Virus record (IMG/VR): IMGVR_UViG_3300032167_007646
Reading direction: 5' to 3' (one strand)
DNA length: 64,000 nt
Source: a virus
Lineage: Duplodnaviria > Heunggongvirae > Uroviricota > Caudoviricetes
Of this stretch, positions 4,172-52,923 are shown one piece after another; position 1 is the stretch's first letter, and the number at the start of each line of letters is the position of its first letter. A model generated the notes under the pieces. The model made no database searches. It saw only the letters and a list, made by a program, of their open reading frames with translations, and was not told the origin of the DNA. A program made the translations under genes and the position numbers.

Positions 4172-5206
4172 TTATTTCTCAAGTTCTCTTGCTCTCTTAA
4201 CAAGATAATCATAAACAACCCTTTGAGTTGCAGGAGTAATTTTTGTAAATTCAATAGCAAGTTCTCTATATGTATCTGCACCAATTACACTTGATACTGC
4301 TGAATTATTGATTGCAACCTTAGAATAATAATGCTTTAATTCATATCTACCCATTTCATCTACTTTTACAGTAGGTGAACCCAAATCATCACAATTCATA
4401 CAAAGTGTATAACCATCATGATAATTAATTCTTGAACGAGTGATACCAATAATATCACCATTATCAATCAGTTTATCAATAGCACTTGCATTGATTACTG
4501 CATTACCATCACTATCAAGAGAAGCACAATTTAAAAGTTTTACTCCATTACGAAGATAGAAAATATCACGATAAGCCAAACGATAAACACTACCCTCATT
4601 CATAAGAATTTCAATAACATCAAAATCAGAACTTACACAACTAATCATATCACGAAGGAGAGAAACTTTTTTACCTTCTTTAACTGTCTCAACTTTTTCA
4701 GATACTTCTGATTTCTTTGTCTGTGTAGTATTATCTACAACCTTATGTTCTTTTGCATAAGCAGTTGCTTCCTTACCAAAAAGAAATCCACCATTTTTAA
4801 CTTCTGATTTATCTACACCAAATTCTTTCAAAATGGCTTCCAAATCCATACTTTTAAATGTGTCAGCGAATTTCTTTGCAATTTTATCACGAGCACTTAC
4901 GTGGTCAAACTCATATACACCATCAAAAGGTGTTCCACGAAGTCCTAAATAAGACTTTGCTTCTTCCTGCTTTTCACCATAACCTCTATATCTTCTAATA
5001 AGTTCAATACCATCTCTAATTTCTTCTTCAGACTTAAGACCAAATTCTTTCATAGCCTTTTCTTTTTGCTTATCTGTATAAAAGGCAGGGTCAGTGTAAT
5101 TCAAAGCAATCTCACCACGAACACCTGTTGCCTCAAAATAATACAGACCATTATCTGCAATATCATCTTTTTCTCGAATACCTAAATATGCCATTCCAAT
5201 CACCAT
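4172..5206 (-). CDS. Hypothetical protein
   Basis: 344-aa ORF, compact spacing. A consensus promoter sits upstream at 5271-5299. Confidence 0.4.
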   Translation of the reverse strand: MVIGMAYLGIREKDDIADNGLYYFEATGVRGEIALNYTDPAFYTDKQKEKAMKEFGLKSEEEIRDGIELIRRYRGYGEKQEEAKSYLGLRGTPFDGVYEFDHVSARDKIAKKFADTFKSMDLEAILKEFGVDKSEVKNGGFLFGKEATAYAKEHKVVDNTTQTKKSEVSEKVETVKEGKKVSLLRDMISCVSSDFDVIEILMNEGSVYRLAYRDIFYLRNGVKLLNCASLDSDGNAVINASAIDKLIDNGDIIGITRSRINYHDGYTLCMNCDDLGSPTVKVDEMGRYELKHYYSKVAINNSAVSSVIGADTYRELAIEFTKITPATQRVVYDYLVKRARELEK

Positions 5207-5270
5207 TCACCTTTCCATAAATAGTATTTTTGTATTCAATATTTTTACATCATTTCTATCTTGTCATTTA

Positions 5271-5299
5271 ATTATATCATAAAAATAATCTTTTGTCAA
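5271..5299 (-). promoter_or_regulatory. Promoter TTGACA-N17-TATAAT for 4172-5206
   Basis: Minus-strand TTGACA at 5294-5299 and TATAAT at 5271-5276. Confidence 0.6.
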
Positions 5300-5348
5300 C
5301 ACACATAATGAAAAATATTAAATATTTTTGTAACTTTTTCTTAATAAA

Positions 5349-6041
5349 TCAAACAATTTTTATAATTGAATCATATAGACAAGTATGTTTTTCATCTATA
5401 TTTAAGTCTTCATGATAATGTCCAAAATACCAATGTTTATATTTTATATCTTGTTCTATAAAATGAAAATATTGTGTTAGACTATCTTGTTCATACCAAC
5501 TTCTAATCCTCATTTGAATACCTGTACCACAACAATGACTTATTACAAAATCTATTTCATTATTATGCTTTTGAAGATTATCTAAACCATAATTCATTTC
5601 ATTTAATGTAGGCATTTCTTCAGACCACCAAGAAACATTTTCTATTCTATGTTCTTTATCATGACTTGAAGCCCCACCAAAACAATAAAACTTTTTATCT
5701 CCTATGGTATAAACTTCACCACGCTTTAAATGGTAAACACTATCACATACTTTACCAACTTTACTACCAAACATTTCTACTTTTGGTAGTTCATTAAGCA
5801 TTTTATGATTTTCATGATTCCCATCTACAAACAATGTTGTAAATGGTTTTTCTCTAAACCACTTTTGCCAATACAAATCCTCTTTATAACACTTACTATC
5901 CTTTTGATACCACACACAACCAAAATCACCACAAACAATAAGATAATCATTTTTTGTTAATTCTTTTTGTTGAGGAAAATTTTTTGTATTTAATTTATGA
6001 ATATCCACAGGACAATGAGTATCACCTGTCACATAAATCAT
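5349..6041 (-). CDS. Calcineurin-like metallophosphoesterase
   Basis: Motifs 'VTGDTH', 'CGDFG', 'GNHE' and 'GHYH' are present. Confidence 0.7.
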   Translation of the reverse strand: MIYVTGDTHCPVDIHKLNTKNFPQQKELTKNDYLIVCGDFGCVWYQKDSKCYKEDLYWQKWFREKPFTTLFVDGNHENHKMLNELPKVEMFGSKVGKVCDSVYHLKRGEVYTIGDKKFYCFGGASSHDKEHRIENVSWWSEEMPTLNEMNYGLDNLQKHNNEIDFVISHCCGTGIQMRIRSWYEQDSLTQYFHFIEQDIKYKHWYFGHYHEDLNIDEKHTCLYDSIIKIV

Positions 6042-6053
6042 TATATCACAACC

Positions 6054-6458
6054 TTAAACTTTTTCCCAATATCCATATAAACTATACTCACCACAATTCC
6101 AAGTATCATAATAAAAACCATCTACTACTGTTACTATATGATGAGCTAAACGCAAAACAAAAGTACCGTCTCTATGTGTATTTGCAAAAGATTTAACAGT
6201 AGGTCTTTTTGTACCTTTTTTATTACTAATACCTTGATACTTAAATTTCTTTACTTCTTCTAAATATTTTTCATAACAAGGTCTGCAATTAAAAGGTACT
6301 TGCATTTCCCTACTGATAGGCTGCATTTCATCAAATACTTCTAACCATTCCATATTCAATGCCTTACATAAACTACGAATTACACAATCACCATATTTAT
6401 CTTTAAGGTCTTTTTTATTAGGTTGAAAATAAACATAACCTGTAACTTTTTTACCCAT
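6054..6458 (-). CDS. Hypothetical protein
   Basis: 134-aa ORF with Cys/His content. Lies between well-supported genes. Confidence 0.35.
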   Translation of the reverse strand: MGKKVTGYVYFQPNKKDLKDKYGDCVIRSLCKALNMEWLEVFDEMQPISREMQVPFNCRPCYEKYLEEVKKFKYQGISNKKGTKRPTVKSFANTHRDGTFVLRLAHHIVTVVDGFYYDTWNCGEYSLYGYWEKV

Positions 6459-6469
6459 AATAACACTCC

Positions 6470-7621
6470 TTAAATGCTATTTTTAGTATAATCCAAAAAG
6501 TTTATATCAAATACAAAAGGTCTCAAAGGTATAAAATCTTCCTTAGTATCCACATTAAATGATAACTCAAATTTTGGAAAAACTGTACAAGGAACTTTAA
6601 TACAAAACATCTTTGAACTGTTCTTTTCAATAATATTAGTATCTGTTCCTACTTTTACAACTTCTTCATTTATATTAACACCATTAGTTGAAATATTATA
6701 AGATAATTCCTTAAAAATCTTTTCTAAATGAGAACACTTTAATATTCCACTAAACTCATTACCATTAAGAATACCTGTTAATTTACGACCATAATATTCT
6801 TTAAGTTCTTCATTATTAGTAAAATCTATATGCTCAAAGTCCACATAGTTAAAAGAACACTCTTTTTCAGGTTTTACAGATACTTCATTAATATAAATAT
6901 CACTATTCAAACCATTATTAACTGTAAAATAAAAATACAAGTTTCCTTCAGATACTACAGTTCTTTCTACTTTTAATGAAACACACAATTGTTCTCTTTC
7001 AATATTTCTTCCAAGTGACTTATAAAAATTCATAAATTCATTCTTAAATATCTCGCTATCTCTACCACCGTAAAGTTTTTCATTATTCAAATCAACTTTA
7101 TGAATACAAGATGCATAAACATTTAAGTATGCCTGCTTTGAAACATACTCAAAAGAACTATCATTTGGAACAACAGAATATACATTATTATTTTCCACTG
7201 TGTTTATAACATTTTCACAAAAACCTGTAAAAAATACTGTAGAGCCTAAAGATACAAAACCTACATATTTAGGTATATGCAACTTCATAAGAACGCAATA
7301 TTTCTTAATTTCTCCATTTTGAGATTTATAAAAATGCTTAAACCCTATTCCTGTTCCTTTTCTTTCCAACCCACAATAAACTGCCACCCAAGTTGTAAGA
7401 AAGTTTTCACCATTCATACAAATAGGCTCTGTCATAACAACACCATAACCACTTACTGTTTCTTTTTTAAATCCCCTATAGTCTTTTTTATGCATTAGCC
7501 TATTCAAAAGACCTTCAGGAGAAGAAAAAGATAAACTTCTTAAAATGTCATAACCATACATTATATCAGAGTCTACCATATCAAGTAAGCCAACTTTACA
7601 ATTACCATTAACGACTCCCAT
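6470..7621 (-). CDS. Hypothetical protein
   Basis: 383-aa ORF. RBS AAGGAGG and a consensus promoter (7661-7689) lie directly upstream. Confidence 0.45.
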   Translation of the reverse strand: MGVVNGNCKVGLLDMVDSDIMYGYDILRSLSFSSPEGLLNRLMHKKDYRGFKKETVSGYGVVMTEPICMNGENFLTTWVAVYCGLERKGTGIGFKHFYKSQNGEIKKYCVLMKLHIPKYVGFVSLGSTVFFTGFCENVINTVENNNVYSVVPNDSSFEYVSKQAYLNVYASCIHKVDLNNEKLYGGRDSEIFKNEFMNFYKSLGRNIEREQLCVSLKVERTVVSEGNLYFYFTVNNGLNSDIYINEVSVKPEKECSFNYVDFEHIDFTNNEELKEYYGRKLTGILNGNEFSGILKCSHLEKIFKELSYNISTNGVNINEEVVKVGTDTNIIEKNSSKMFCIKVPCTVFPKFELSFNVDTKEDFIPLRPFVFDINFLDYTKNSI

Positions 7622-7660
7622 CTTATCAGCCTCCTTATATTTTTTACTTGATTATCATAT

Positions 7661-7689
7661 ATTATAACATAATATCTAAATATTGTCAA
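7661..7689 (-). promoter_or_regulatory. Promoter TTGACA-N17-TATAAT (TGn-extended) for 6470-7621
   Basis: Minus-strand TTGACA at 7684-7689 and TATAAT at 7661-7666. RBS AAGGAGG follows. Confidence 0.6.
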
Positions 7690-7741
7690 CTATTTTTTAT
7701 AAAAAAATAAGACTAACAAAAAAAGTTAGCCTTATAATTCA

Positions 7742-8050
7742 TTATTTACTTAAAACTCTATCCTTATTTTTTACATTATTAGTATTTTTATATACAGAAC
7801 CACTTACTCTCTTCATTTCCCTCTTTTTTTTCATATATCTAACTAATATAATAGCACAATATATCTCTGAAATTGCAAGAGCAAAAATACCTAAAACGCA
7901 AATAAGAAAAACTGGGACAGTAAGAATTCTAGTATATTTCAAAATACAATACATAAATGCTATACCTAAAATACCTAAAATCATCATTATAGTTGCAAAC
8001 TTACCTACTGTCATAAACTTTTTAATTTTTTCAAAAATACTTTTCATCAT
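7742..8050 (-). CDS. Small membrane protein (2 TM helices)
   Basis: Hydrophobic 102-aa ORF on the gene-bearing strand. Confidence 0.35.
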   Translation of the reverse strand: MMKSIFEKIKKFMTVGKFATIMMILGILGIAFMYCILKYTRILTVPVFLICVLGIFALAISEIYCAIILVRYMKKKREMKRVSGSVYKNTNNVKNKDRVLSK

Positions 8051-8075
8051 TAACCACCAATCTTAAGTTATTGTA

Positions 8076-8489
8076 TTATTTTACACCCCAAAGTGTATTT
8101 ACTTTATCCATATTTGTCTTACAAGTTGAAACCATATTTTTCAAATCATCTAATATAGGTGAAACTTCAAACATAATTGCTTCAACAGTAGAATTATTTT
8201 CAATTAATTCTTCTACTTTCATTTGACGACCTGTTATTGCTTCACTAATCTCATTCTGATAATCTTTACTTTCATCTGCTATAAAAGGATTAAGAGTCAT
8301 TCTATAAGTTGAAAAAATAGTACCTAAACACTTCTTTCTCTTCTCAACCTTTTCATTCATATCTAAACAAACCTTATAATTTGTTTCTAACTTATTAAAA
8401 AGTAATTTACTCTGAACCTCTAATTCATGATTCTTACCTTTTTTACCCCCATAAACCTTTGTCATCTTTTGACCATTCTTCTTCACCAT
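8076..8489 (-). CDS. Hypothetical protein
   Basis: 137-aa ORF. Its start overlaps the 3' end of the methyltransferase gene. Confidence 0.3.
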   Translation of the reverse strand: MVKKNGQKMTKVYGGKKGKNHELEVQSKLLFNKLETNYKVCLDMNEKVEKRKKCLGTIFSTYRMTLNPFIADESKDYQNEISEAITGRQMKVEELIENNSTVEAIMFEVSPILDDLKNMVSTCKTNMDKVNTLWGVK

Positions 8490-9276
8490 TCAGCACTCCT
8501 ATCTCTTTTTCTATTCTTTCAACTATAATATTATAATACTTTTCATCCAATTCAAAACCTATGTAATTTCTACCTGTTCTCATACAAGCAATAGCCGTTG
8601 TGCCACTACCCATACAATTATCTAAAACTACTTCACCCTCATTGCTATATGTTTTTATTAAATATTCGCATAAAGCAATAGGTTTTTGAGTAGGATGTAA
8701 TTTATCTTTATCACGATTAAACTTTATTAAATTCTTTGGAAATCTCTCTCCTTTATTTTCTGTTAAATAACCATGACAATTTTCTCTACCACTTTTTCCA
8801 CCTGCACGAACAACTGCACTATTTTCTTTTTGCTTACCACTTCTTGTTGTATAAGGTTTACCCTCTGACATTTGTGGATTATATATAAGATTTTCACCAT
8901 TTTTTACAAATGAAGTAGCACCTGTACCAAAGACACAAATATCCTCAGTTATTTTTAAAGGACAATAATGACTATTCATAAAATTTGTACCATTATCTTT
9001 TTCCCATACCCAATTATACTTCCACATATCTATATTAGAATTAATTAACAGAGAAGTAAAAGGTTGTTGTGAAAATAATACAATAGCACGATTTGGTTTG
9101 ATAATACGCTTGTATTCTTGCCACAACAAGTCCATAGGTAACTTCTTATCCCAACTTGATGCACTTGTTCCATAAGGCAAATCACAAAGAATCATATCTA
9201 TACTATTATCAGGTATTCTCTTCATACCTATTAAACAATCTTCATTGAAAACCATATTCATCAAAATTATCACCAC
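8443..9276 (-). CDS. DNA methyltransferase, N4-cytosine/N6-adenine family, beta class (orphan; no restriction enzyme partner seen)
   Basis: Motif IV 'LCDLPYGT' precedes motif I 'LDNCMGSGTTAIAC'. The order IV then I indicates the beta class. Confidence 0.75.
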   Translation of the reverse strand: MVIILMNMVFNEDCLIGMKRIPDNSIDMILCDLPYGTSASSWDKKLPMDLLWQEYKRIIKPNRAIVLFSQQPFTSLLINSNIDMWKYNWVWEKDNGTNFMNSHYCPLKITEDICVFGTGATSFVKNGENLIYNPQMSEGKPYTTRSGKQKENSAVVRAGGKSGRENCHGYLTENKGERFPKNLIKFNRDKDKLHPTQKPIALCEYLIKTYSNEGEVVLDNCMGSGTTAIACMRTGRNYIGFELDEKYYNIIVERIEKEIGVLNGEEEWSKDDKGLWG

Positions 9277-14119: not shown

Positions 14120-14938
14120 TTAAATATGACAATCTACAATTGTCACTAAATAATTATTTTCTTTTGCCATTTCTACAAACTTTACATAATTATCATACCA
14201 ATCTTTTTCTTCTTCATCAGAAGCGTGACTGACTCCCCACCAACCCATTTCACCAGGTTCATGCCACTCACCATCTGGAGTTAATACAGCATAAGTAGAA
14301 AAAGCAGTAGATACTTCTATATATCTTTCTTTTGAGCCATATTTTTTCAAAAAAGATTCTTTTTTATAATATTTAGAAGTAAAATCTTCATCATCATTTT
14401 CAGGTTTTACACCCTCTACTACTAAATCCCAAACTCTACCATAATAATCACTATCTTCTTTTGAAGGACTAAAATCTATTTCATCAGCATAAGCACTATC
14501 TGTTGTTCCACCATCTTTTAATTTAAGTGAACCACTCCAACGACCACCCTCTACATACCAATCCCATTTTGATTTTGGATTATATGTAGAAAGAATACCA
14601 CCTGTTTCATCTATACTTTCAGGTTCATACCAACTAATTGCTTCTTTATAAATAACTTCATCATCATCTATATTTTCAAGTAATTTAGGAAAATCTTCTG
14701 AAATATATTTAATATGCCCTTCATTCTTATTTTTCAACTTATACTCCATAGGATTTTTAAGATACTCTGCATAAAGACCATCTCTATATCTTAATAAATC
14801 TGCTCTTTTATTCTCTATTAACTGTTGTTTTGAATATCTTTGATATTCTGGTACTTCAATAGATTCATCAAAAGGTGCTAATAATTCCTCAACACAAGTA
14901 TCTTCATCTGATAAAACCATCACACTATAATGACTCAT
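14120..14938 (-). CDS. Acidic hypothetical protein ('WDWYVEGGRW' motif)
   Basis: 272-aa ORF rich in D/E/W/Y. Confidence 0.4.
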   Translation of the reverse strand: MSHYSVMVLSDEDTCVEELLAPFDESIEVPEYQRYSKQQLIENKRADLLRYRDGLYAEYLKNPMEYKLKNKNEGHIKYISEDFPKLLENIDDDEVIYKEAISWYEPESIDETGGILSTYNPKSKWDWYVEGGRWSGSLKLKDGGTTDSAYADEIDFSPSKEDSDYYGRVWDLVVEGVKPENDDEDFTSKYYKKESFLKKYGSKERYIEVSTAFSTYAVLTPDGEWHEPGEMGWWGVSHASDEEEKDWYDNYVKFVEMAKENNYLVTIVDCHI

Positions 14939-14962: not shown

Positions 14963-15202
14963 TTAATTTCTATTCATAAATACTACTTGTTCTCTTATTA
15001 AAGTAGAACACTCATCAATATGCTCACATAAAGAACAATGACTAAAACATTCTTTAAATTTCATTGTTTTAATTAACTCATAACAACGAGAATTATCTTT
15101 AATAGGACCCCATAAGTTTTTACATTGACTATCTTTACAATCAAAACAATCCTTTATTGAATTTTTATCACAAACATTATTCATCAGCCAACACCCTCTC
15201 AC
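14963..15202 (-). CDS. Small Cys-rich protein (possible zinc-binding)
   Basis: 79-aa ORF with about 12 Cys. Confidence 0.3.
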   Translation of the reverse strand: MRGCWLMNNVCDKNSIKDCFDCKDSQCKNLWGPIKDNSRCYELIKTMKFKECFSHCSLCEHIDECSTLIREQVVFMNRN

Positions 15203-16922
15203 ATACTTTTTTTATTACAGGTACTACCACAGTATTACCCAATAAATCCATACCCTTATTATAATCTATATCTAATTTATAATCATCAGGATAACCGTCT
15301 AAACGTAATCCTTCTCTTAAAGTTAATTTACGAATACCTTTACCGTCTATAACACCTGTTTTATGAACATCAGTTGCTACAAGAGTTAAAGAAGGTTTAT
15401 TAGGGTCTAATATCTTTGTAAACTCATAACTTAATCTACCGCCATTTATATCATACAAAGTATTAGGATATGTGTCTAATTTTACTTCTTTAAGATAATT
15501 ACAACTTAACAAATACTCAATGTCTTTATCTAAATCTTCACCCTCATAAATCAATTTAAGTTCTTCTTTATCCAACCCTAAACCATCTTTCAAAGGCTGA
15601 CCTTTTTTCTTTGCTAAATCACTTCTTCTTCGTTCTGTAACTAACTTTTCCATTAACTTTTGCTGACTTTCTGTAGTAACACCTCTCAAACCTAAAGTCC
15701 AACTATGTATATTATTACTACTTCCCCTTTTATCTCTAATTGCTTTATCATATAAATAATCTACGGATAAATTATTTTTATCTAAATAATCAAACAACTT
15801 TATAGAAAAGTCACTATTTACACAAGGCTTACCAACCTCTTGAACATCTCCAAACTTACAATCTACCTTTTCAAAATCATCTAAACTAATATATCTATCT
15901 TTACAACCAACAATATAAATTCTTCTTCTTAATTGTGGTACACCAAAATCACTTGCTTGTAATACTTTCCAAGTAACTTTATACCCTAATTCTTCAAGTA
16001 CATATAATATTGTTTCTAATGTTTTTCCAATTGTTTTACCTAATTTTTTATCTTCTTTACTTAAATCATGAATAACAAGATTTTCCACATTTTCTAACAA
16101 GAAATATTTAGGACTTTTTTCTTTTAATATACGAGCCACTTCAAAGAAAAGAGTTCCACGAGTATCTTCAAAACCTGCCCTTTTACCTGCTGCACTAAAA
16201 GGCTGACAATTATGTACTATTATATCATTTGCTGTATAAGAATTATCTTCTTTTACACATAGATTATAAACTTTTGTTCTCCTACTTACTGTCTTAAATT
16301 TACCTCTAACTCTAACCCAAAAATATTTATTATCTTGACTATATACCTTATCTAAATATTTTTCAGTCTTTTGTATTAACTCAATAGGTATACCTACAAG
16401 CATACCCTTCTTCAACTCTCCAGCTTTTACCCATTCTGGTTCTTGCTTTTCTTTACTTTCCAAAACTTCTGGTAAAGGTGTAGTTATGGTATAAAATGGA
16501 TGATTTTCAGTAGTTCCTATCAAAATATTATTTTCCAAACTAATATTATAATAACTATCTACTGATTGTTCCATAATTTCTTCTACTTCTTTATATGTAT
16601 TTGTATGAGTTAATACTTTATCTCCTACCTTAACATCTCTTATTTTCTTATATCCTATTTCTGTAAATACAAGAGTTTCACCTATAAAACAAGGAAAACC
16701 TGCCAAAAGCATATCAAAATTAGGAATATCTTTTCCTTCTATTTTTGTAATATCTCCAACAATATTATCTTCACCAAAATTATCTTTATAAACTTTTAAC
16801 GCATGTGGTTTTATTTCAGAAGTAAGAACACACTCACCTTTTATACCCTTATCTTTTAATGCTTGTTCTAAACCAAGTCTTATTCCACCCATACCTGCAA
16901 ATAAATCTATATACTTAAACAC
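15177..16922 (-). CDS. DNA (cytosine-5)-methyltransferase interrupted by a 161-aa mini-intein at the catalytic Pro-Cys motif
   Basis: Motif I 'FAGMGGIRLG'. Motif IV is split: 'GFP' | intein | 'CQPFSAAGKR'. ENV motif 'LLENVENL'. Full C5-MTase C-terminal half. Confidence 0.85.
   Translation of the reverse strand: MFKYIDLFAGMGGIRLGLEQALKDKGIKGECVLTSEIKPHALKVYKDNFGEDNIVGDITKIEGKDIPNFDMLLAGFPCFIGETLVFTEIGYKKIRDVKVGDKVLTHTNTYKEVEEIMEQSVDSYYNISLENNILIGTTENHPFYTITTPLPEVLESKEKQEPEWVKAGELKKGMLVGIPIELIQKTEKYLDKVYSQDNKYFWVRVRGKFKTVSRRTKVYNLCVKEDNSYTANDIIVHNCQPFSAAGKRAGFEDTRGTLFFEVARILKEKSPKYFLLENVENLVIHDLSKEDKKLGKTIGKTLETILYVLEELGYKVTWKVLQASDFGVPQLRRRIYIVGCKDRYISLDDFEKVDCKFGDVQEVGKPCVNSDFSIKLFDYLDKNNLSVDYLYDKAIRDKRGSSNNIHSWTLGLRGVTTESQQKLMEKLVTERRRSDLAKKKGQPLKDGLGLDKEELKLIYEGEDLDKDIEYLLSCNYLKEVKLDTYPNTLYDINGGRLSYEFTKILDPNKPSLTLVATDVHKTGVIDGKGIRKLTLREGLRLDGYPDDYKLDIDYNKGMDLLGNTVVVPVIKKVCERVLADE
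16209..16691 (-). mobile_element. Mini-intein within the C5-MTase (residues 78-238); no obvious homing-endonuclease domain
   Basis: Block A 'CFIGETLVFTEIG...I'. Block B 'TENHPFYT'. Blocks F/G 'VYNLCVKEDNSYTANDIIVHN'. The next residue is Cys (+1). Confidence 0.8.
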
Positions 16923-18071: not shown

Positions 18072-20912
18072 TTAAATTTTCTCTATTTTATTTGAATCTG
18101 TTTTTATACCTTTTATACCTACTTCATCAAACATTACAACATAAGCGTCATTAACTATCTGCATAACAGTCCCCTCACCAAATATCTTATGACGAATACG
18201 AGTACCTTGTGTAATTGTTGTCCTATCTGTTATAGTATCTAAAATAGAACTTGTAGACTCACCAAATCTACCTCTATCCATATTTACTTTTGACTCTAAC
18301 TGCCTAATTAACATTTCATCTATTTTACCCTCTGAATCAAACTTATCACGAGGTATATTATAAATAAAACGAGAAGGAAGTCTATATGAATTATCATAAT
18401 TAGAACCCTCTGCATCAACCATAAATAGAAGTTCTTTTGCTCTTGTCATCGCAACATAAGCAATTCTTCTTTCTTCTTCCATCATTGCTGCACAAGTTGT
18501 TCTACTACTTGGCATAATACCCTCATTCATATCTACAACAAACACTATTGGATACTCTAAACCTTTTGCAGCATGAATAGTCATTAACTTAACTTTATTT
18601 GGAGTTTCTTCTTCATCACTTGAAGTATATAAAGATAACATACTCAAATAATTACCTAACTCTACTTTTTCACGCTGATTATGTTCATAATGTTGTGCTG
18701 AACGTTTCAATTCTTGTAGATTTTCCCAACGCTCTACTTCACTATTTTTATACAATTCTTCAAGGTTTAATGCTGTATATACCCTACCCATTAACATAGA
18801 TATTGTTTCTACTTCTGCATATTGTTTCAAATCTTCAACCAACTCAACTAACCACTTTGCTTTTGTACTCTTAAATGTTTTATGGTCTATATTCATACTT
18901 AAAGTTTCATATAAACTAAATTTACCACTTGATAGTTCTTTTAATAATTCTATCTTCTTTGGACCTATACCTAACGATAAAGTCTTTATTGTTCTCATAA
19001 AAGATAAATTATCCCCAAAAGCAACTACACTTAACAAAGCTAAAACATCTTTAATTTCTTTTCTTGAATAGAAAGAAATACCACTTAATACTTCATAAGG
19101 AATTCCATTTTCTATTAGTTTTTCCTCAAGAGTACGAGAAGAAGTATTACTTCTATACAAGATAGCAATATCACTATATGGTTTCTTTAGTGATAATATT
19201 CTTCGTGCTACCCAATCTGCCTCATTATAAACATTTCTTGCATGATAATGTAAAACCCTTGCGCCATTACCTTTGTTTGCCACCAAATCTTTATCTACTC
19301 TATTAACATTATGTTTAATTAAAGCATTACTAACATCTAATATTTGTGGAGTTGAACGATAATTAGTTGTCAAATAAACAGAATGAACTTTATTCTCTCT
19401 ATTCTGTAATTTATTCATAATAGCCTCAAACTGAACTATACAATTTACATCACTACCTCTAAATGAATAAATACAATTATGAACTAAAACATTATTAACA
19501 AAAAAGTTTCTACTATTTGGTACATTTATATCATACACCTTACCACTGTAATTCTCCATTTTTATATCTATAATGTCAGATAACTTTACACCATAATCCA
19601 AATATACAGGTAAAGAATCACCTATCTTTAATTCATCAGCACGACATAATTCACTAGGTAATTCAGATATTAAACGGGCATTTATAACTAAATCTTTTTC
19701 TTCTCTATCAGCAATTATATGTGCATATTCACCTGCTTTATCAAAATCTGTAACACAAGTAACATTAGAACCATCATATATATTATGTCCATAAGTATAT
19801 GTTGCATTATCTCTACCTACATCTTTAGCAACATTTCCAAAATACTCTAAATATACTGAATTTTGTTTTATACTATTTCTACAAGCAAATAATTTATGTT
19901 CAGGTGTAAGTGTTAACTCATTACCATTCTCTAAAATTATTTTAACAACTTTGCCATTATAATCTCTCATAAATACTGCATCTATTTTAAATGAGTCTAC
20001 TTCACCATTACCTACACCACTTAAAACATCATCACCAATATTGAAACCATCTATATTTCTTTCAACACCATATTTTCCTCTAACTTTAGAACCTGCAACG
20101 ACACACTGACTATCATCACCAACAACAAACAAATTACCACATTTGTTAGAAAGAATACCTAATAATTCTACCTCTCTCAAAGAAACATCTTGAAACTCAT
20201 CTACTTGAATATAATCAAAAACATTTTCCCACATATCACGAACCTCTTTACGAGTTTTCAAGACATATAAGGCCATATTCAATAAATCTTCATAATCTAA
20301 ACAAGCATCACGCTTTTGTTCCCTTAAATAACCATAAATTATTTTTAACTCTCTATTTGGTGCAATCTGCATAAGATTATGTAATTCATAAGAACTTGAT
20401 TTCTCTAAAAGTTCCTCATAATTACTTAAATATGTTCTCTGACCATTCTTGCAACCTGCACCTATAATTTCAGTTAATGCTCTTTTATATGGAAAGTCAG
20501 TATTAGTCATACCTAATTCTGCATAAACTACTTTTAACATATCTACTTGGTCATCTACATCCATTATCTTAAAATTCTTTGAAATACCTAATACTTCTAT
20601 TTCACTATGTAAAAACCTATTACAAAAACCATGAAATGTCATAATATAAGGTGTTGCAATATCCCCACCTATCATATGATTTATTCTTGCTTTCATTTCA
20701 TTTGCGGCCTTATTTGTAAATGTTACAGATAATATTCTATTAGGACTTATATCCAATTCATCAACTAAATAAGCATAACGAGTAGTCAATGCTCTTGTTT
20801 TTCCTGAACCTGCACCTGCAATAACCCTAACATAACCCTCTGTTGTTGTTACTGCTTCTAACTGTTCTTTATTCAAACCCATTAGTATCTTATTCACTAT
20901 ACACAACTCCAA
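18072..20912 (-). CDS. UvrD/PcrA-family superfamily-1 DNA helicase interrupted by a 210-aa mini-intein
   Basis: Walker A 'AGAGSGKT', 'LSVTFTNKAANEM' and 'VDEFQD'. Motif III is split: 'VVGDDSQ' | intein | 'CIYSFRGSD'. Confidence 0.85.
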   Translation of the reverse strand: MELCIVNKILMGLNKEQLEAVTTTEGYVRVIAGAGSGKTRALTTRYAYLVDELDISPNRILSVTFTNKAANEMKARINHMIGGDIATPYIMTFHGFCNRFLHSEIEVLGISKNFKIMDVDDQVDMLKVVYAELGMTNTDFPYKRALTEIIGAGCKNGQRTYLSNYEELLEKSSSYELHNLMQIAPNRELKIIYGYLREQKRDACLDYEDLLNMALYVLKTRKEVRDMWENVFDYIQVDEFQDVSLREVELLGILSNKCGNLFVVGDDSQCVVAGSKVRGKYGVERNIDGFNIGDDVLSGVGNGEVDSFKIDAVFMRDYNGKVVKIILENGNELTLTPEHKLFACRNSIKQNSVYLEYFGNVAKDVGRDNATYTYGHNIYDGSNVTCVTDFDKAGEYAHIIADREEKDLVINARLISELPSELCRADELKIGDSLPVYLDYGVKLSDIIDIKMENYSGKVYDINVPNSRNFFVNNVLVHNCIYSFRGSDVNCIVQFEAIMNKLQNRENKVHSVYLTTNYRSTPQILDVSNALIKHNVNRVDKDLVANKGNGARVLHYHARNVYNEADWVARRILSLKKPYSDIAILYRSNTSSRTLEEKLIENGIPYEVLSGISFYSRKEIKDVLALLSVVAFGDNLSFMRTIKTLSLGIGPKKIELLKELSSGKFSLYETLSMNIDHKTFKSTKAKWLVELVEDLKQYAEVETISMLMGRVYTALNLEELYKNSEVERWENLQELKRSAQHYEHNQREKVELGNYLSMLSLYTSSDEEETPNKVKLMTIHAAKGLEYPIVFVVDMNEGIMPSSRTTCAAMMEEERRIAYVAMTRAKELLFMVDAEGSNYDNSYRLPSRFIYNIPRDKFDSEGKIDEMLIRQLESKVNMDRGRFGESTSSILDTITDRTTITQGTRIRHKIFGEGTVMQIVNDAYVVMFDEVGIKGIKTDSNKIEKI
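19476..20105 (-). mobile_element. Mini-intein within the UvrD/PcrA helicase (residues 270-479)
   Basis: Begins with Cys. Block B 'TLTPEHKLF'. Blocks F/G 'VYDINVPNSRNFFVNNVLVHN'. Followed by Cys (+1). Confidence 0.8.
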
Positions 20913-50118: not shown

Positions 50119-51732
50119 TTATTTATCTAAATTTACTCCTATACTGCTAGCCTTCGTAGTAACACTTCTCCAAGTTTTATTTGGTAATAAAGTTAAAATT
50201 TCTTTTCCTAAAAAACTATAATTCATTTTTAATATTTCCACTTCTTCTTCAGTCCATCTATTTAATCTACACTTTATACCCTCTCTTTTTGCTTTTTGAA
50301 CTATTTTATGAGAACTCCTATGCCCTAAACCATTTTTCTGACATAATTCCGAACCACCTAAAGGATAATACTCTTTTAATATATTCTCCTCTTCAGGAGT
50401 CCAAAAGTCTACAAAGTTTACTTTTAATCCTAATTTAGATACCTGACCCCTTATCGATTGTGGACTTCTATTGAATAAACCATTATCTTGACACAATTTA
50501 ACGCCACCCAATGGATAATATTTTTTTATTATTTCTTTTTCTTCATCAGACCACAAAGTAGGTTCTTTTCCTCTTTTTTGTGTTAATTTCAAATGCTGTG
50601 CATATCGTCGTATCGCACAAATTGTTTTATCTAAACCTTTTTCTTGACATAATTTTGCACCACCTATTTGATAATATTCTTTCATTATATCAATATCTTT
50701 TTCAGTCCAAATAGTATGTGTCATATTAGTTTTTACTCCTAAAATAGACGCACGACCCTCTATACTTTTTTTATCTCTATTCAAACCATTTTTTTGACAT
50801 AATTTATATCCACCTACTGGATAATATCTATTAATAATGTCATCTTCAGCATTAGTATAATATCTACCATATTTTAAGTTTAATTCACGTGCTTTTGTTC
50901 CTATTGATTCTTTACTCCTATTTATACCCTTTTCAATACACAATAGTCCACCGCCTAATGGGTAATATTTTCTTAAAATACTCAATTCTTCTTCTGTCCA
51001 TGAAATTATTTTTACAATTCCTAGCTTTTTTGCTCTTCTATGAATAGCGTGAGTTTCCCTATTACATAAACCATTTTTTATACACTCTTCTACACCACCT
51101 AATGGATAATATTTACAAATGATTTTATCTTCTTTTTCAGTCCAAGGTACCATTCTTTGATAAATTAAACCTAATTGATTTGCTGAAGCTACAATATTAC
51201 TTTTACTCTTATGAGAAAGTCCATTTTCCCTACATAATTTACTTCCACCTAATGGGTAATATTTTCTTAAAATACTTATTTCTTCTTCATTCCATCTATT
51301 TATACCTCTTAAATATGATATACCTAAAACTTTTGCTCTACTTGTAATATTTTGAGAACTCTTTTTTATACCATTTTTTTGACAAGCAGATGAACCACCT
51401 GTTGGATAATATTTACGAATTATTTCATCTTCTAAATCAGACCAATTACCTAAATATTTTATATTTAAAAAAGCAGCCCTAGCATGTATTGCCTGTTTTG
51501 TTCTATTTATTCCTTTTTCAAGACAAAGAACTACACCACCCAATGAATAATATTTACTAATTATTTCATCTTCAAAGCTTTCCCAAATATTAACTAATCT
51601 TTTAACTCCTAAAAGACTTGCTCTTGCATATATTGCTTCAATAGACCTATTAATACCTTTTTCTTTACAAACTGAAGCACCACCCGTAGGATAATATTTA
51701 AAAATAATATCATCTTCTATTTTTGTCCATTT
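50119..51732 (-). repeat. Eleven tandem coding repeats of ~135-150 bp (Myb/SANT-like modules)
   Basis: DNA-level recurrence, e.g. 'ccacctaatgggtaatattttcttaaaatact' near 50950 and 51240. Confidence 0.7.
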
Positions 51733-52923
51733 TTCACTATAAATAACATTATGAATATTGTCTAAAACTTCCATAATATCCTTGCAATAACTAGATACAA
51801 TTATTTTCTTTTCATCATGACTATTTTCAAATTTATTTAAGTTCAATTTTTTATTTATTTCTTCTATAATGCTTAAACTAAACTTTTCATAACCCTCTAT
51901 TCTTTTTAAGTTACCTATAAAATCAAAGATTATTGGAGCTTTACCACCTATTTGTAAAGCCCTACCTAATTGCTGCAAATATACTATTGGAGACATTGTT
52001 TTTCTAAGCATTATTACGCCATCAATATCTTTAATATGAACACCCTCATTTAACATATTTATAGAAAGCAAAATATTTATTCCATTCTTCGTTTCATTAA
52101 ACTCATTTAAAACCCTCATATTTCCAGAATAATTACTATATGAATGTAAAATAAAAATATTTACTTTACCATTAAACCAAGAATATACTTTATCTTTGAA
52201 CTCTTCTAATTCTTCTAATCTAGTGAAGAAAGCTATCCATTTTTGATTACAACCCAGATTTACTGTTTCTTTTTGAATAATTTTACCTATACTATAATTA
52301 TTTTCTAAATTTGATACTACACTTTTAATATCCGTAGAAAATTTCTTATTATGCTTTTCTATTTTATCAAATAAATCTTTTTCATACCCATAATACGAAA
52401 CAACATACTTAAAAGTAGGAAGCACACCTGATACTACGGCATCAACAATGTTAAGACCATTTACTACATTACCTTTAAAGAATTCCTCTGACATATCTCT
52501 TTCATTATCAAGGTATCTTACAGGTGTAGCAGAAAGACCAACTGTTTTACAACCTTTTGATTCTGCTCTATCACAAAGCATTTCTACCTTTCTACCCCAA
52601 GTTTCTGCACCTATTCTATGAAATTCATCCAAGATAATAAGAGAAACCTTTTCACCAAGTTCCTCTATCTGATTATTCAAAAGCATTGAAATACCTTTAT
52701 ATGTATAGAAAATAACATTTTCACTATTTACACCCAAGTTCATTCTATAATTTTCAAGAATTGCATTTGTAGGTGCAATAACCAAAACATTAACATAGTC
52801 CTCAATCAAAGAACTAGCAATAACACCTTTTCCTGTTCCTGTAGCCTGAACAATACAGACACGAGAAGATGTCTTTAATCTTTCAATAACCTCATCATAT
52901 ACTATTTTATTATGTTCTAACAT
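50119..52923 (-). CDS. DExH-box helicase (SF2, type-III-restriction-res-like) fused to 11 tandem ~45-aa Myb/SANT-like repeats
   Basis: Walker A 'ATGTGKG', 'ILDEFHRIG', 'QQLGRALQ'. Eleven repeats of 'W(T/S)xEE(D/E)xI(L/I)xKYYPxGGxxLCxxNG(L/I)NRSxxSIxxRAxxLG(L/I)K'. Confidence 0.7.
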   Translation of the reverse strand: MLEHNKIVYDEVIERLKTSSRVCIVQATGTGKGVIASSLIEDYVNVLVIAPTNAILENYRMNLGVNSENVIFYTYKGISMLLNNQIEELGEKVSLIILDEFHRIGAETWGRKVEMLCDRAESKGCKTVGLSATPVRYLDNERDMSEEFFKGNVVNGLNIVDAVVSGVLPTFKYVVSYYGYEKDLFDKIEKHNKKFSTDIKSVVSNLENNYSIGKIIQKETVNLGCNQKWIAFFTRLEELEEFKDKVYSWFNGKVNIFILHSYSNYSGNMRVLNEFNETKNGINILLSINMLNEGVHIKDIDGVIMLRKTMSPIVYLQQLGRALQIGGKAPIIFDFIGNLKRIEGYEKFSLSIIEEINKKLNLNKFENSHDEKKIIVSSYCKDIMEVLDNIHNVIYSEKWTKIEDDIIFKYYPTGGASVCKEKGINRSIEAIYARASLLGVKRLVNIWESFEDEIISKYYSLGGVVLCLEKGINRTKQAIHARAAFLNIKYLGNWSDLEDEIIRKYYPTGGSSACQKNGIKKSSQNITSRAKVLGISYLRGINRWNEEEISILRKYYPLGGSKLCRENGLSHKSKSNIVASANQLGLIYQRMVPWTEKEDKIICKYYPLGGVEECIKNGLCNRETHAIHRRAKKLGIVKIISWTEEELSILRKYYPLGGGLLCIEKGINRSKESIGTKARELNLKYGRYYTNAEDDIINRYYPVGGYKLCQKNGLNRDKKSIEGRASILGVKTNMTHTIWTEKDIDIMKEYYQIGGAKLCQEKGLDKTICAIRRYAQHLKLTQKRGKEPTLWSDEEKEIIKKYYPLGGVKLCQDNGLFNRSPQSIRGQVSKLGLKVNFVDFWTPEEENILKEYYPLGGSELCQKNGLGHRSSHKIVQKAKREGIKCRLNRWTEEEVEILKMNYSFLGKEILTLLPNKTWRSVTTKASSIGVNLDK

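Follow-up and report, generated by a model that had tools for sequence, protein, structure and literature searches.

The 64,000-nucleotide stretch of IMG/VR record IMGVR_UViG_3300032167_007646, which was analysed at its full length and is called the window here, carries on its minus strand a gene for a UvrD/PcrA-like superfamily 1 (SF1) helicase whose motif III is interrupted by a 210-amino acid insert with the features of an intein. The initial annotation had placed a mini-intein at 19476-20105; these borders proved exact to the base, and the feature lies on the minus strand. The parts of the gene are as follows.

18072..20897, minus strand: helicase precursor gene (UvrD/PcrA-like SF1, intein-bearing), from the list of open reading frames (ORFs), with Pfam UvrD-helicase, UvrD_C and AAA_19 matches.
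20106..20897, minus strand: N-extein, with helicase motifs I-II and the first half of motif III; its C-terminal end reads ...NLFVVGDDSQ.
19476..20105, minus strand: predicted class-1 mini-intein, 210 aa (630 nt), CVVAGSKV...FFVNNVLVHN, identified by family models, catalytic residues and fold.
20103..20105, minus strand: Cys1 codon, the block A nucleophile, invariant in 18 family members.
19896..19907, minus strand: block B, T67-P-E-H70 (TxxH), with T67 and H70 invariant.
19650..19877, minus strand: family-specific central domain, residues ~77-152, acidic, beta-beta-beta-alpha-beta, at the usual insertion point of homing endonucleases.
19476..19550, minus strand: blocks F and G, YSGKVYDINVPNSRNFFVNNVLVHN, with the invariant residues Asp192, His209 and Asn210.
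19473..19475, minus strand: Cys+1 codon, first C-extein residue and predicted second nucleophile; PcrA has Ser there.
18072..19475, minus strand: C-extein including the stop codon, with the second half of motif III (CIYSFRGSD) and the remaining helicase.

The maximal helicase ORF spans 18072..20912 on the minus strand, its upper end being at 20912. The GTG at 20897 is the likely start codon, with the ATG at 20882 as the alternative. The GTG was favoured because GGAG is found 9 nt upstream and because most of the homologues, which are called as either 941 or 936 aa, have the former length. No break interrupts the reading frame across these 941 codons, and the ORF is to be annotated as a UvrD/PcrA-like helicase of 731 aa with an intein of 210 aa. 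The GC contents of the intein (28%), the exteins (30%) and the window (27%) reveal no compositional break.

The precursor matched the Pfam models UvrD-helicase (PF00580, E 3.7e-59) and UvrD_C (PF13361, E 2.2e-66) and contains motifs I-VI, as do the SF1A helicases UvrD, PcrA and Rep. When the 210 residues were removed, the spliced product aligned with PcrA (1pjr) from residue 3 to 639, every helicase motif included (E 1.4e-107), and the junction aligned without a gap ('vvgddsqciysfrgsdv' against 'AVGDADQSIYRWRGADI'). These results bear out the earlier proposals that the host is a UvrD/PcrA-type helicase, that its motif III is split and that removal of 210 aa restores it. The score for the PcrA equivalog model TIGR01073 was 499.3 bits against a cut-off of 911.2, and the NCBIfam UvrD and Rep equivalog models also scored under their cut-offs; the intein-containing precursor was used for this scoring, which depressed the scores somewhat. 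The helicase thus falls short of assignment as a PcrA orthologue, and UvrD/PcrA-like is the accurate name. It also differs from PcrA of Geobacillus stearothermophilus (1pjr/3pjr) in having Cys rather than Ser after the motif III Gln.

The precursor reads ...NLFVVGDDSQ / CVVAGSKV...FFVNNVLVHN / CIYSFRGSDV..., where the slashes mark the junctions. The isolated 210 residues scored 57.9 bits with Pfam Intein_splicing (cut-off 35.8), 30.4 bits with Hint (cut-off 29.7) and 36.8 bits with NCBIfam intein_Nterm (cut-off 24.5), and TIGR01443 on the precursor gave 15.6 bits, exactly its cut-off. An AlphaFold2 model of the intein, built with 18 family members, had a mean predicted local distance difference test score (pLDDT) of 94.4 and showed the Hedgehog/intein (HINT) fold. 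In the same 18 members, which are 26-89% identical, residues C1, T67, H70, D192, H209 and N210 are invariant, as are G188, V190, Y191, D192, N194, N200, V208, H209 and N210 of blocks F/G; Cys154 is conserved too. The description of blocks B and F/G as canonical therefore holds. In the alignment, every intein-bearing allele of the helicase clade has Cys at +1, so that the residues of a class-1 intein (Cys1, the block B TxxH, the block F Asp, the terminal His-Asn and a +1 Cys) are all present. In two members, P0028 and P0029, whose inteins are 288 and 256 aa, an additional low-complexity insertion of ~50-80 aa was seen in the C-terminal HINT lobe, past the GDxLP strand; the intein family therefore tolerates a second insertion point.

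From sequence, predicted fold, catalytic residues, insertion site, empty alleles and evolutionary pattern, we conclude with a probability of about 0.93 that the insert is a canonical class-1, cis-splicing mini-intein in motif III of a UvrD/PcrA-like SF1 helicase. The term mini-intein was upheld in that a homing-endonuclease domain is absent, but the element is not minimal, since ~75 of its 210 residues form a central domain outside the HINT fold.

In SF1A helicases such as PcrA and UvrD, motif III couples the gamma-phosphate of ATP, through its Gln, to contacts with single-stranded DNA (ssDNA), and inteins favour the ATPase motifs of replication and repair proteins. The intein lies between this Gln and the next residue. 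We collected its family by a search with the whole precursor; a word-index search with the intein alone gave one fragment only. About 30 intein-bearing homologues were found (59-100% identity, inteins of 202-288 aa), together with intein-free homologues of 731-733 aa (63-77% identity). In the alignment, the intein-free proteins P0027, P0030-32 and P0035-39 lack exactly the intein columns. P0030, P0032, P0035 and P0036 read GDDSQ/CIYSFRG, and the +1 residue of the other empty alleles is T, S, A or N.

Two of the empty alleles are in genomes with the same gene order as the window. Genome L027 (P0027, GDPDQ/TIYSF) is syntenic through MarR, a MacAB-like efflux gene, an SLH protein, three small ORFs, the intein-free helicase, NUDIX, a 175-aa ORF and the intein-containing C5 methylase. 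Genome L029 (P0032, GDDSQ/CIYSF) keeps the core order of intein-free helicase, NUDIX, a 182-aa ORF and the intein-containing C5 methylase. The DNA of the empty site is GATGATAGTCAA/TGTATTTAT in L029 and, as a variant site, GACCCAGACCAA/ACAATATAT in L027. Alignment to an intein-less helicase and a search for empty alleles had both been proposed in the initial annotation, and they yielded these precisely empty sites. The segment is not a family-specific insertion devoid of intein blocks, the full catalytic set being present and the insert being absent from close homologues.

The same insertion point (GDxxQ, intein, S/C-[IVM]-Y-x-[FW]-x-G) is used elsewhere. UvrD-like helicases of Bacillus phages SPO1 (gp34.33) and CampHawk have annotated inteins at this site (FJ230960, KF669649; PMC3868849). 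In SPO1 gp34.33 the peptide bond is the same (LFLVGDDDQ/C...THN/SMYSFRG, compared with LFVVGDDSQ/C...VHN/CIYSFRG in the window), and both inteins are class 1 with Cys1 and a terminal HN. The SPO1 intein, however, is 275 aa with Ser+1 whereas that of the window is 210 aa with Cys+1, pairwise identity between them is detectable in the splicing blocks only, and the host helicases are only ~32% identical. Unannotated inteins of 263-371 aa occupy the same site in Chloroflexi, cyanobacterial and Holophagaceae metagenome-assembled genomes and in several IMG/VR contigs. A viral scan with alignment A1 returned only distant inteins, which matched the splicing blocks. A bacterial survey (Novikova et al. 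2016, PMC4760082) reports 16 UvrD inteins from five phyla including Firmicutes, in COG0210 UvrD-type helicases and within the ATPase core, as in the window; its searchable text does not name the motif III site, which is mapped here and shown to recur. The window intein is an ordinary representative of a known kind, at a known UvrD-helicase intein site.

A strongly conserved central domain, VYLM..G.RVG...R.RQE.ADK.WVL.V..S..EA...E.....YGIP..F...CL..G....P, is common to the larger inteins at this site; we found it in the SPO1 gp34.33 intein (L006 2296-3120) and in L039, L041, L066, L135, L155, L157, L164, L170 and L174. Neither a Pfam family nor a PDB sequence matched this domain, and it may be an uncharacterised type of homing endonuclease. 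Its motifs (in short, VYLM..G.RVG..R.RQE.ADK.WVL..EA..E..YGIP) are absent from the window intein.

The intein has a patchy distribution, with filled and empty alleles interspersed in a neighbour-joining tree of the exteins. Inteins and exteins are also discordant. The exteins of P0013 (L031) are 97.8% identical to those of the window and its intein only 47%, while P0015 has exteins of 80.6% and an intein of 83% identity. In a sliding window, nucleotide identity to L031 falls from ~90% to 55-74% exactly between the intein borders. A near-identical pair of filled and empty alleles was found in L193 (P0034, 216-aa intein; 6001-8847) and L194 (P0039, empty; 4942-7140), whose exteins have 98.1% nucleotide identity (41 differences in 2199 nt). 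Of these, eleven, mostly synonymous, lie within -7..+33 nt of the junction, where ~0.75 would be expected by chance (P ~5e-10, our own Poisson estimate). Co-conversion during homing would be expected to leave such a cluster behind, as would selection for empty sites that resist cleavage. Similar clustering was seen between the window and L027, with ~9 changes in the 18 nt around the insertion site. The precisely empty syntenic sites, the discordance of inteins and exteins, and the near-identical pair with its junction cluster indicate recent gain or loss of the intein at the DNA level within the helicase clade, as judged from the sequences.

The ratios of nonsynonymous to synonymous substitution (dN/dS) against L032 were 0.17 for the exteins, 0.15 for the whole intein, 0.17 for its HINT part and 0.12 for the central domain, and 0.025 for the exteins against L031; these values are rough, the proportion of synonymous differences (pS) being near saturation (~0.45-0.5) in DNA of 27-30% GC.

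A homing endonuclease was sought inside the intein and around it. Pfam and NCBIfam scans of the intein found no LAGLIDADG, HNH, GIY-YIG or other homing-endonuclease domain. Out-of-frame and antisense homing endonucleases have been reported in phage inteins (bioRxiv 10.1101/2025.01.02.630785), but in the intein DNA no ORF in another frame or on the opposite strand exceeds 43 aa, and a hidden homing endonuclease was ruled out on these two grounds. PHROGs searches of the immediate neighbours (111, 125, 154, 174 and 79 aa) recognised none of them. The element is thus a mini-intein in that a nuclease domain is missing both in frame and in the other frames.

Structurally characterised mini-inteins (Npu DnaB 4o1r, Pho/Pab CDC21-1 6rpq/6rpp, Mja KlbA 2jmz, Pho RadA 4e2u) are 140-186 residues long and have nothing larger than a loop or short linker where an endonuclease would be inserted. 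The window intein, in contrast, has a folded and conserved 75-aa domain there. All family members keep the architecture of this domain, in which F89, Y105, H107 and D122 are nearly invariant, and the domain alone gave a confident predicted fold (pLDDT 82). Its isoelectric point is 4.2-5.1 in most members, and such acidity speaks against a role in DNA binding or cleavage. When 1.84 billion representatives were searched by profile for relatives of the domain, only family members and spurious repeat proteins came up, and structure matches to the intein in BFVD never extended beyond the HINT portion (TMq at most 0.60). The central domain appears to be under purifying selection.

What this domain represents was weighed between two explanations. 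It is possible, although on balance unlikely, that it is a degenerate remnant of the SPO1-type VYLM...FRVG...YGIP central domain, kept as a mere structural spacer. The HINT parts of the window family and of the larger same-site inteins are clearly related (hhalign 99.9%, E 6e-32), both central regions open with a '[NS]-[AS]-VYL' strand ~10 residues past block B, and endonuclease loss is the standard model of intein degeneration. However, the profile-profile comparison of the two central domains (A2 against A4, hhalign) found nothing (probability 0.3%), so that they do not count as a shared domain; a spacer would also fit poorly with the confident fold of the isolated domain, its dN/dS of 0.12 in one comparison and its four nearly invariant residues. 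The other explanation, which we hold to be a good deal less probable still, is that the domain at 19650-19877 is a new functional module and not a spacer; it might be a splicing regulator, a recruiter of trans-acting nuclease or recombination machinery, or a very small new nuclease.

Several points weigh against reading the insert as a splicing and recently mobile mini-intein. The 75-aa central domain without an assigned function leaves the picture of the element incomplete, and the dN/dS values are approximate. The junction cluster could have arisen by selection for nuclease-resistant empty sites instead of co-conversion. Moreover, the cleanest case of recent mobility is P0034, whose intein is only 26% identical to that of the window, and not the window's own allele.

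If the intein had decayed, splicing would have been lost and the helicase gene would effectively be a pseudogene. A missing endonuclease is what one would expect late in the homing cycle, and splicing is here a prediction from sequence. We nevertheless regard such decay as very improbable given the intact 941-codon frame, the strong purifying selection on the exteins (dN/dS 0.025 against L031 and 0.17 against L032) and on the intein (0.15 against L032), and the invariance of the catalytic residues across the family. Least probable of all, and in our view negligible, is that the insert is a non-splicing, family-specific domain resembling HINT or bacterial intein-like (BIL) domains and kept in the mature helicase. 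In favour of this reading, some 75 of the 210 residues fall outside HINT yet are conserved in the family, and the fold matches include HINT domains that serve other roles (BIL, Hedgehog, Vint). Against it, the insert disrupts the invariant motif III (DQ followed by S/T-IY-x-F/W-RG), its class-1 splicing residues including Cys+1 are all invariant, the 210 residues are precisely what close syntenic homologues are missing, these being otherwise complete, and other genomes, that of SPO1 among them, have inteins of unrelated size at this peptide bond. BIL domains are HINT domains in non-conserved regions of variable, often secreted proteins and usually lack a +1 nucleophile, whereas the helicase here is cytoplasmic, the interrupted ATPase motif is invariant and the insert is followed by Cys+1.

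For a splicing class-1 intein, established intein chemistry leads us to infer the following course. An N-S acyl shift at Cys1, helped by Thr67 and His70 of block B, would form a thioester, which would be attacked by Cys+1 in a trans-thioesterification. Cyclisation of Asn210, helped by His209 and the block F Asp192, would then free the intein, and an S-N shift would link ...VVGDDSQ to CIYSFRGSD.... Helicase function should strictly require splicing, the unspliced precursor being expected to be inactive, because motif III connects the sensing of the gamma-phosphate with the ssDNA contacts. As DNA, the element behaves like a presence/absence polymorphism that has moved or been lost recently in the helicase clade. 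Since it does not encode a recognisable homing endonuclease, any mobility would have to depend either on co-resident genomes recombining or on a nuclease that acts in trans.

A second intein is found nearby.

16209-16691, minus strand: second intein, 161 aa, CFIGETL...DIIVHN, inside the C5 cytosine methyltransferase ORF 15177-16922.

This intein splits the catalytic PCQ motif of the methyltransferase between Pro and Cys (GFP / intein / CQPFS), and the catalytic Cys would therefore double as the +1 splicing nucleophile. It is kept in L027, L029, L031 and L032, including genomes without the helicase intein. That the two inteins of the window are duplicates was ruled out, their similarity being limited to blocks F/G.

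All called genes of the window are on the minus strand; many are of unknown function, and most of their products have no Pfam family. Scans of the 64 kb for tRNA genes and Rfam families gave no match. Genes of DNA metabolism or of mobile-element type include several DNA methylases, a thymidine kinase, an SNF2-like helicase, RepL/DnaD-like helix-turn-helix proteins, NUDIX and radical SAM proteins, and genes of cellular type include MacAB-like efflux, a Na+/H+ exchanger, PBP-like proteins, SLH proteins, flotillin and YkuD. PTH2, TerD and beta-CASP genes are also present. The C-terminal region of a 934-aa SNF2/DEAD-type helicase (50119-52923, minus strand) matches the PHROG 'D5-like transcriptional regulator', and its residues 764-926 weakly match an HNH endonuclease family. 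Three window proteins of unknown function were checked for phage matches, and two had none; the third, a 272-aa protein without a Pfam family (14120-14938, minus strand), is a member of phrog_10079 (E 3e-32), a family widespread among phages; homologues spanning its full length occur in 53 phage records, among them phages of Arthrobacter, Gordonia, Erwinia, Myxococcus and Moorella.

The initial annotation had counted two inteins in DNA-metabolism enzymes and had called this characteristic of phage genomes. Both inteins are present, in the helicase and the C5 methyltransferase, but the phage inference is not established. PHROGs searches of ~20 window ORFs found no structural or packaging gene, only families of DNA metabolism and of unknown function, and cellular-type neighbours such as transporters and SLH proteins are present. 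No close relatives were found in GTDB representatives, IMG/VR or INPHARED; alignment-based scans of GTDB genomes and IMG/VR gave only helicases at most 43% identical. Relatives are on metagenomic contigs of up to 300-400 kb. The replicon may be a huge phage, a megaplasmid-like element or an unusual low-GC bacterium.

For protein engineers, a Cys1/Cys+1 mini-intein this compact, from a genome of low GC and anaerobe type, may be of interest. Two uncharacterised modules are now seen at the endonuclease insertion point, the small acidic domain of the window intein and the VYLM/YGIP domain of its allelic inteins; Pfam and PDB contain no relative of the one or the other, and either could be a new homing-related domain. 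If the central domain of the window intein is indeed a functional module, it would help to explain the footprints of recent gain and loss and the discordance of inteins and exteins in a family that lacks an endonuclease. With filled, empty and swapped alleles in one clade, these helicases offer good material on how endonuclease-free inteins persist and move.

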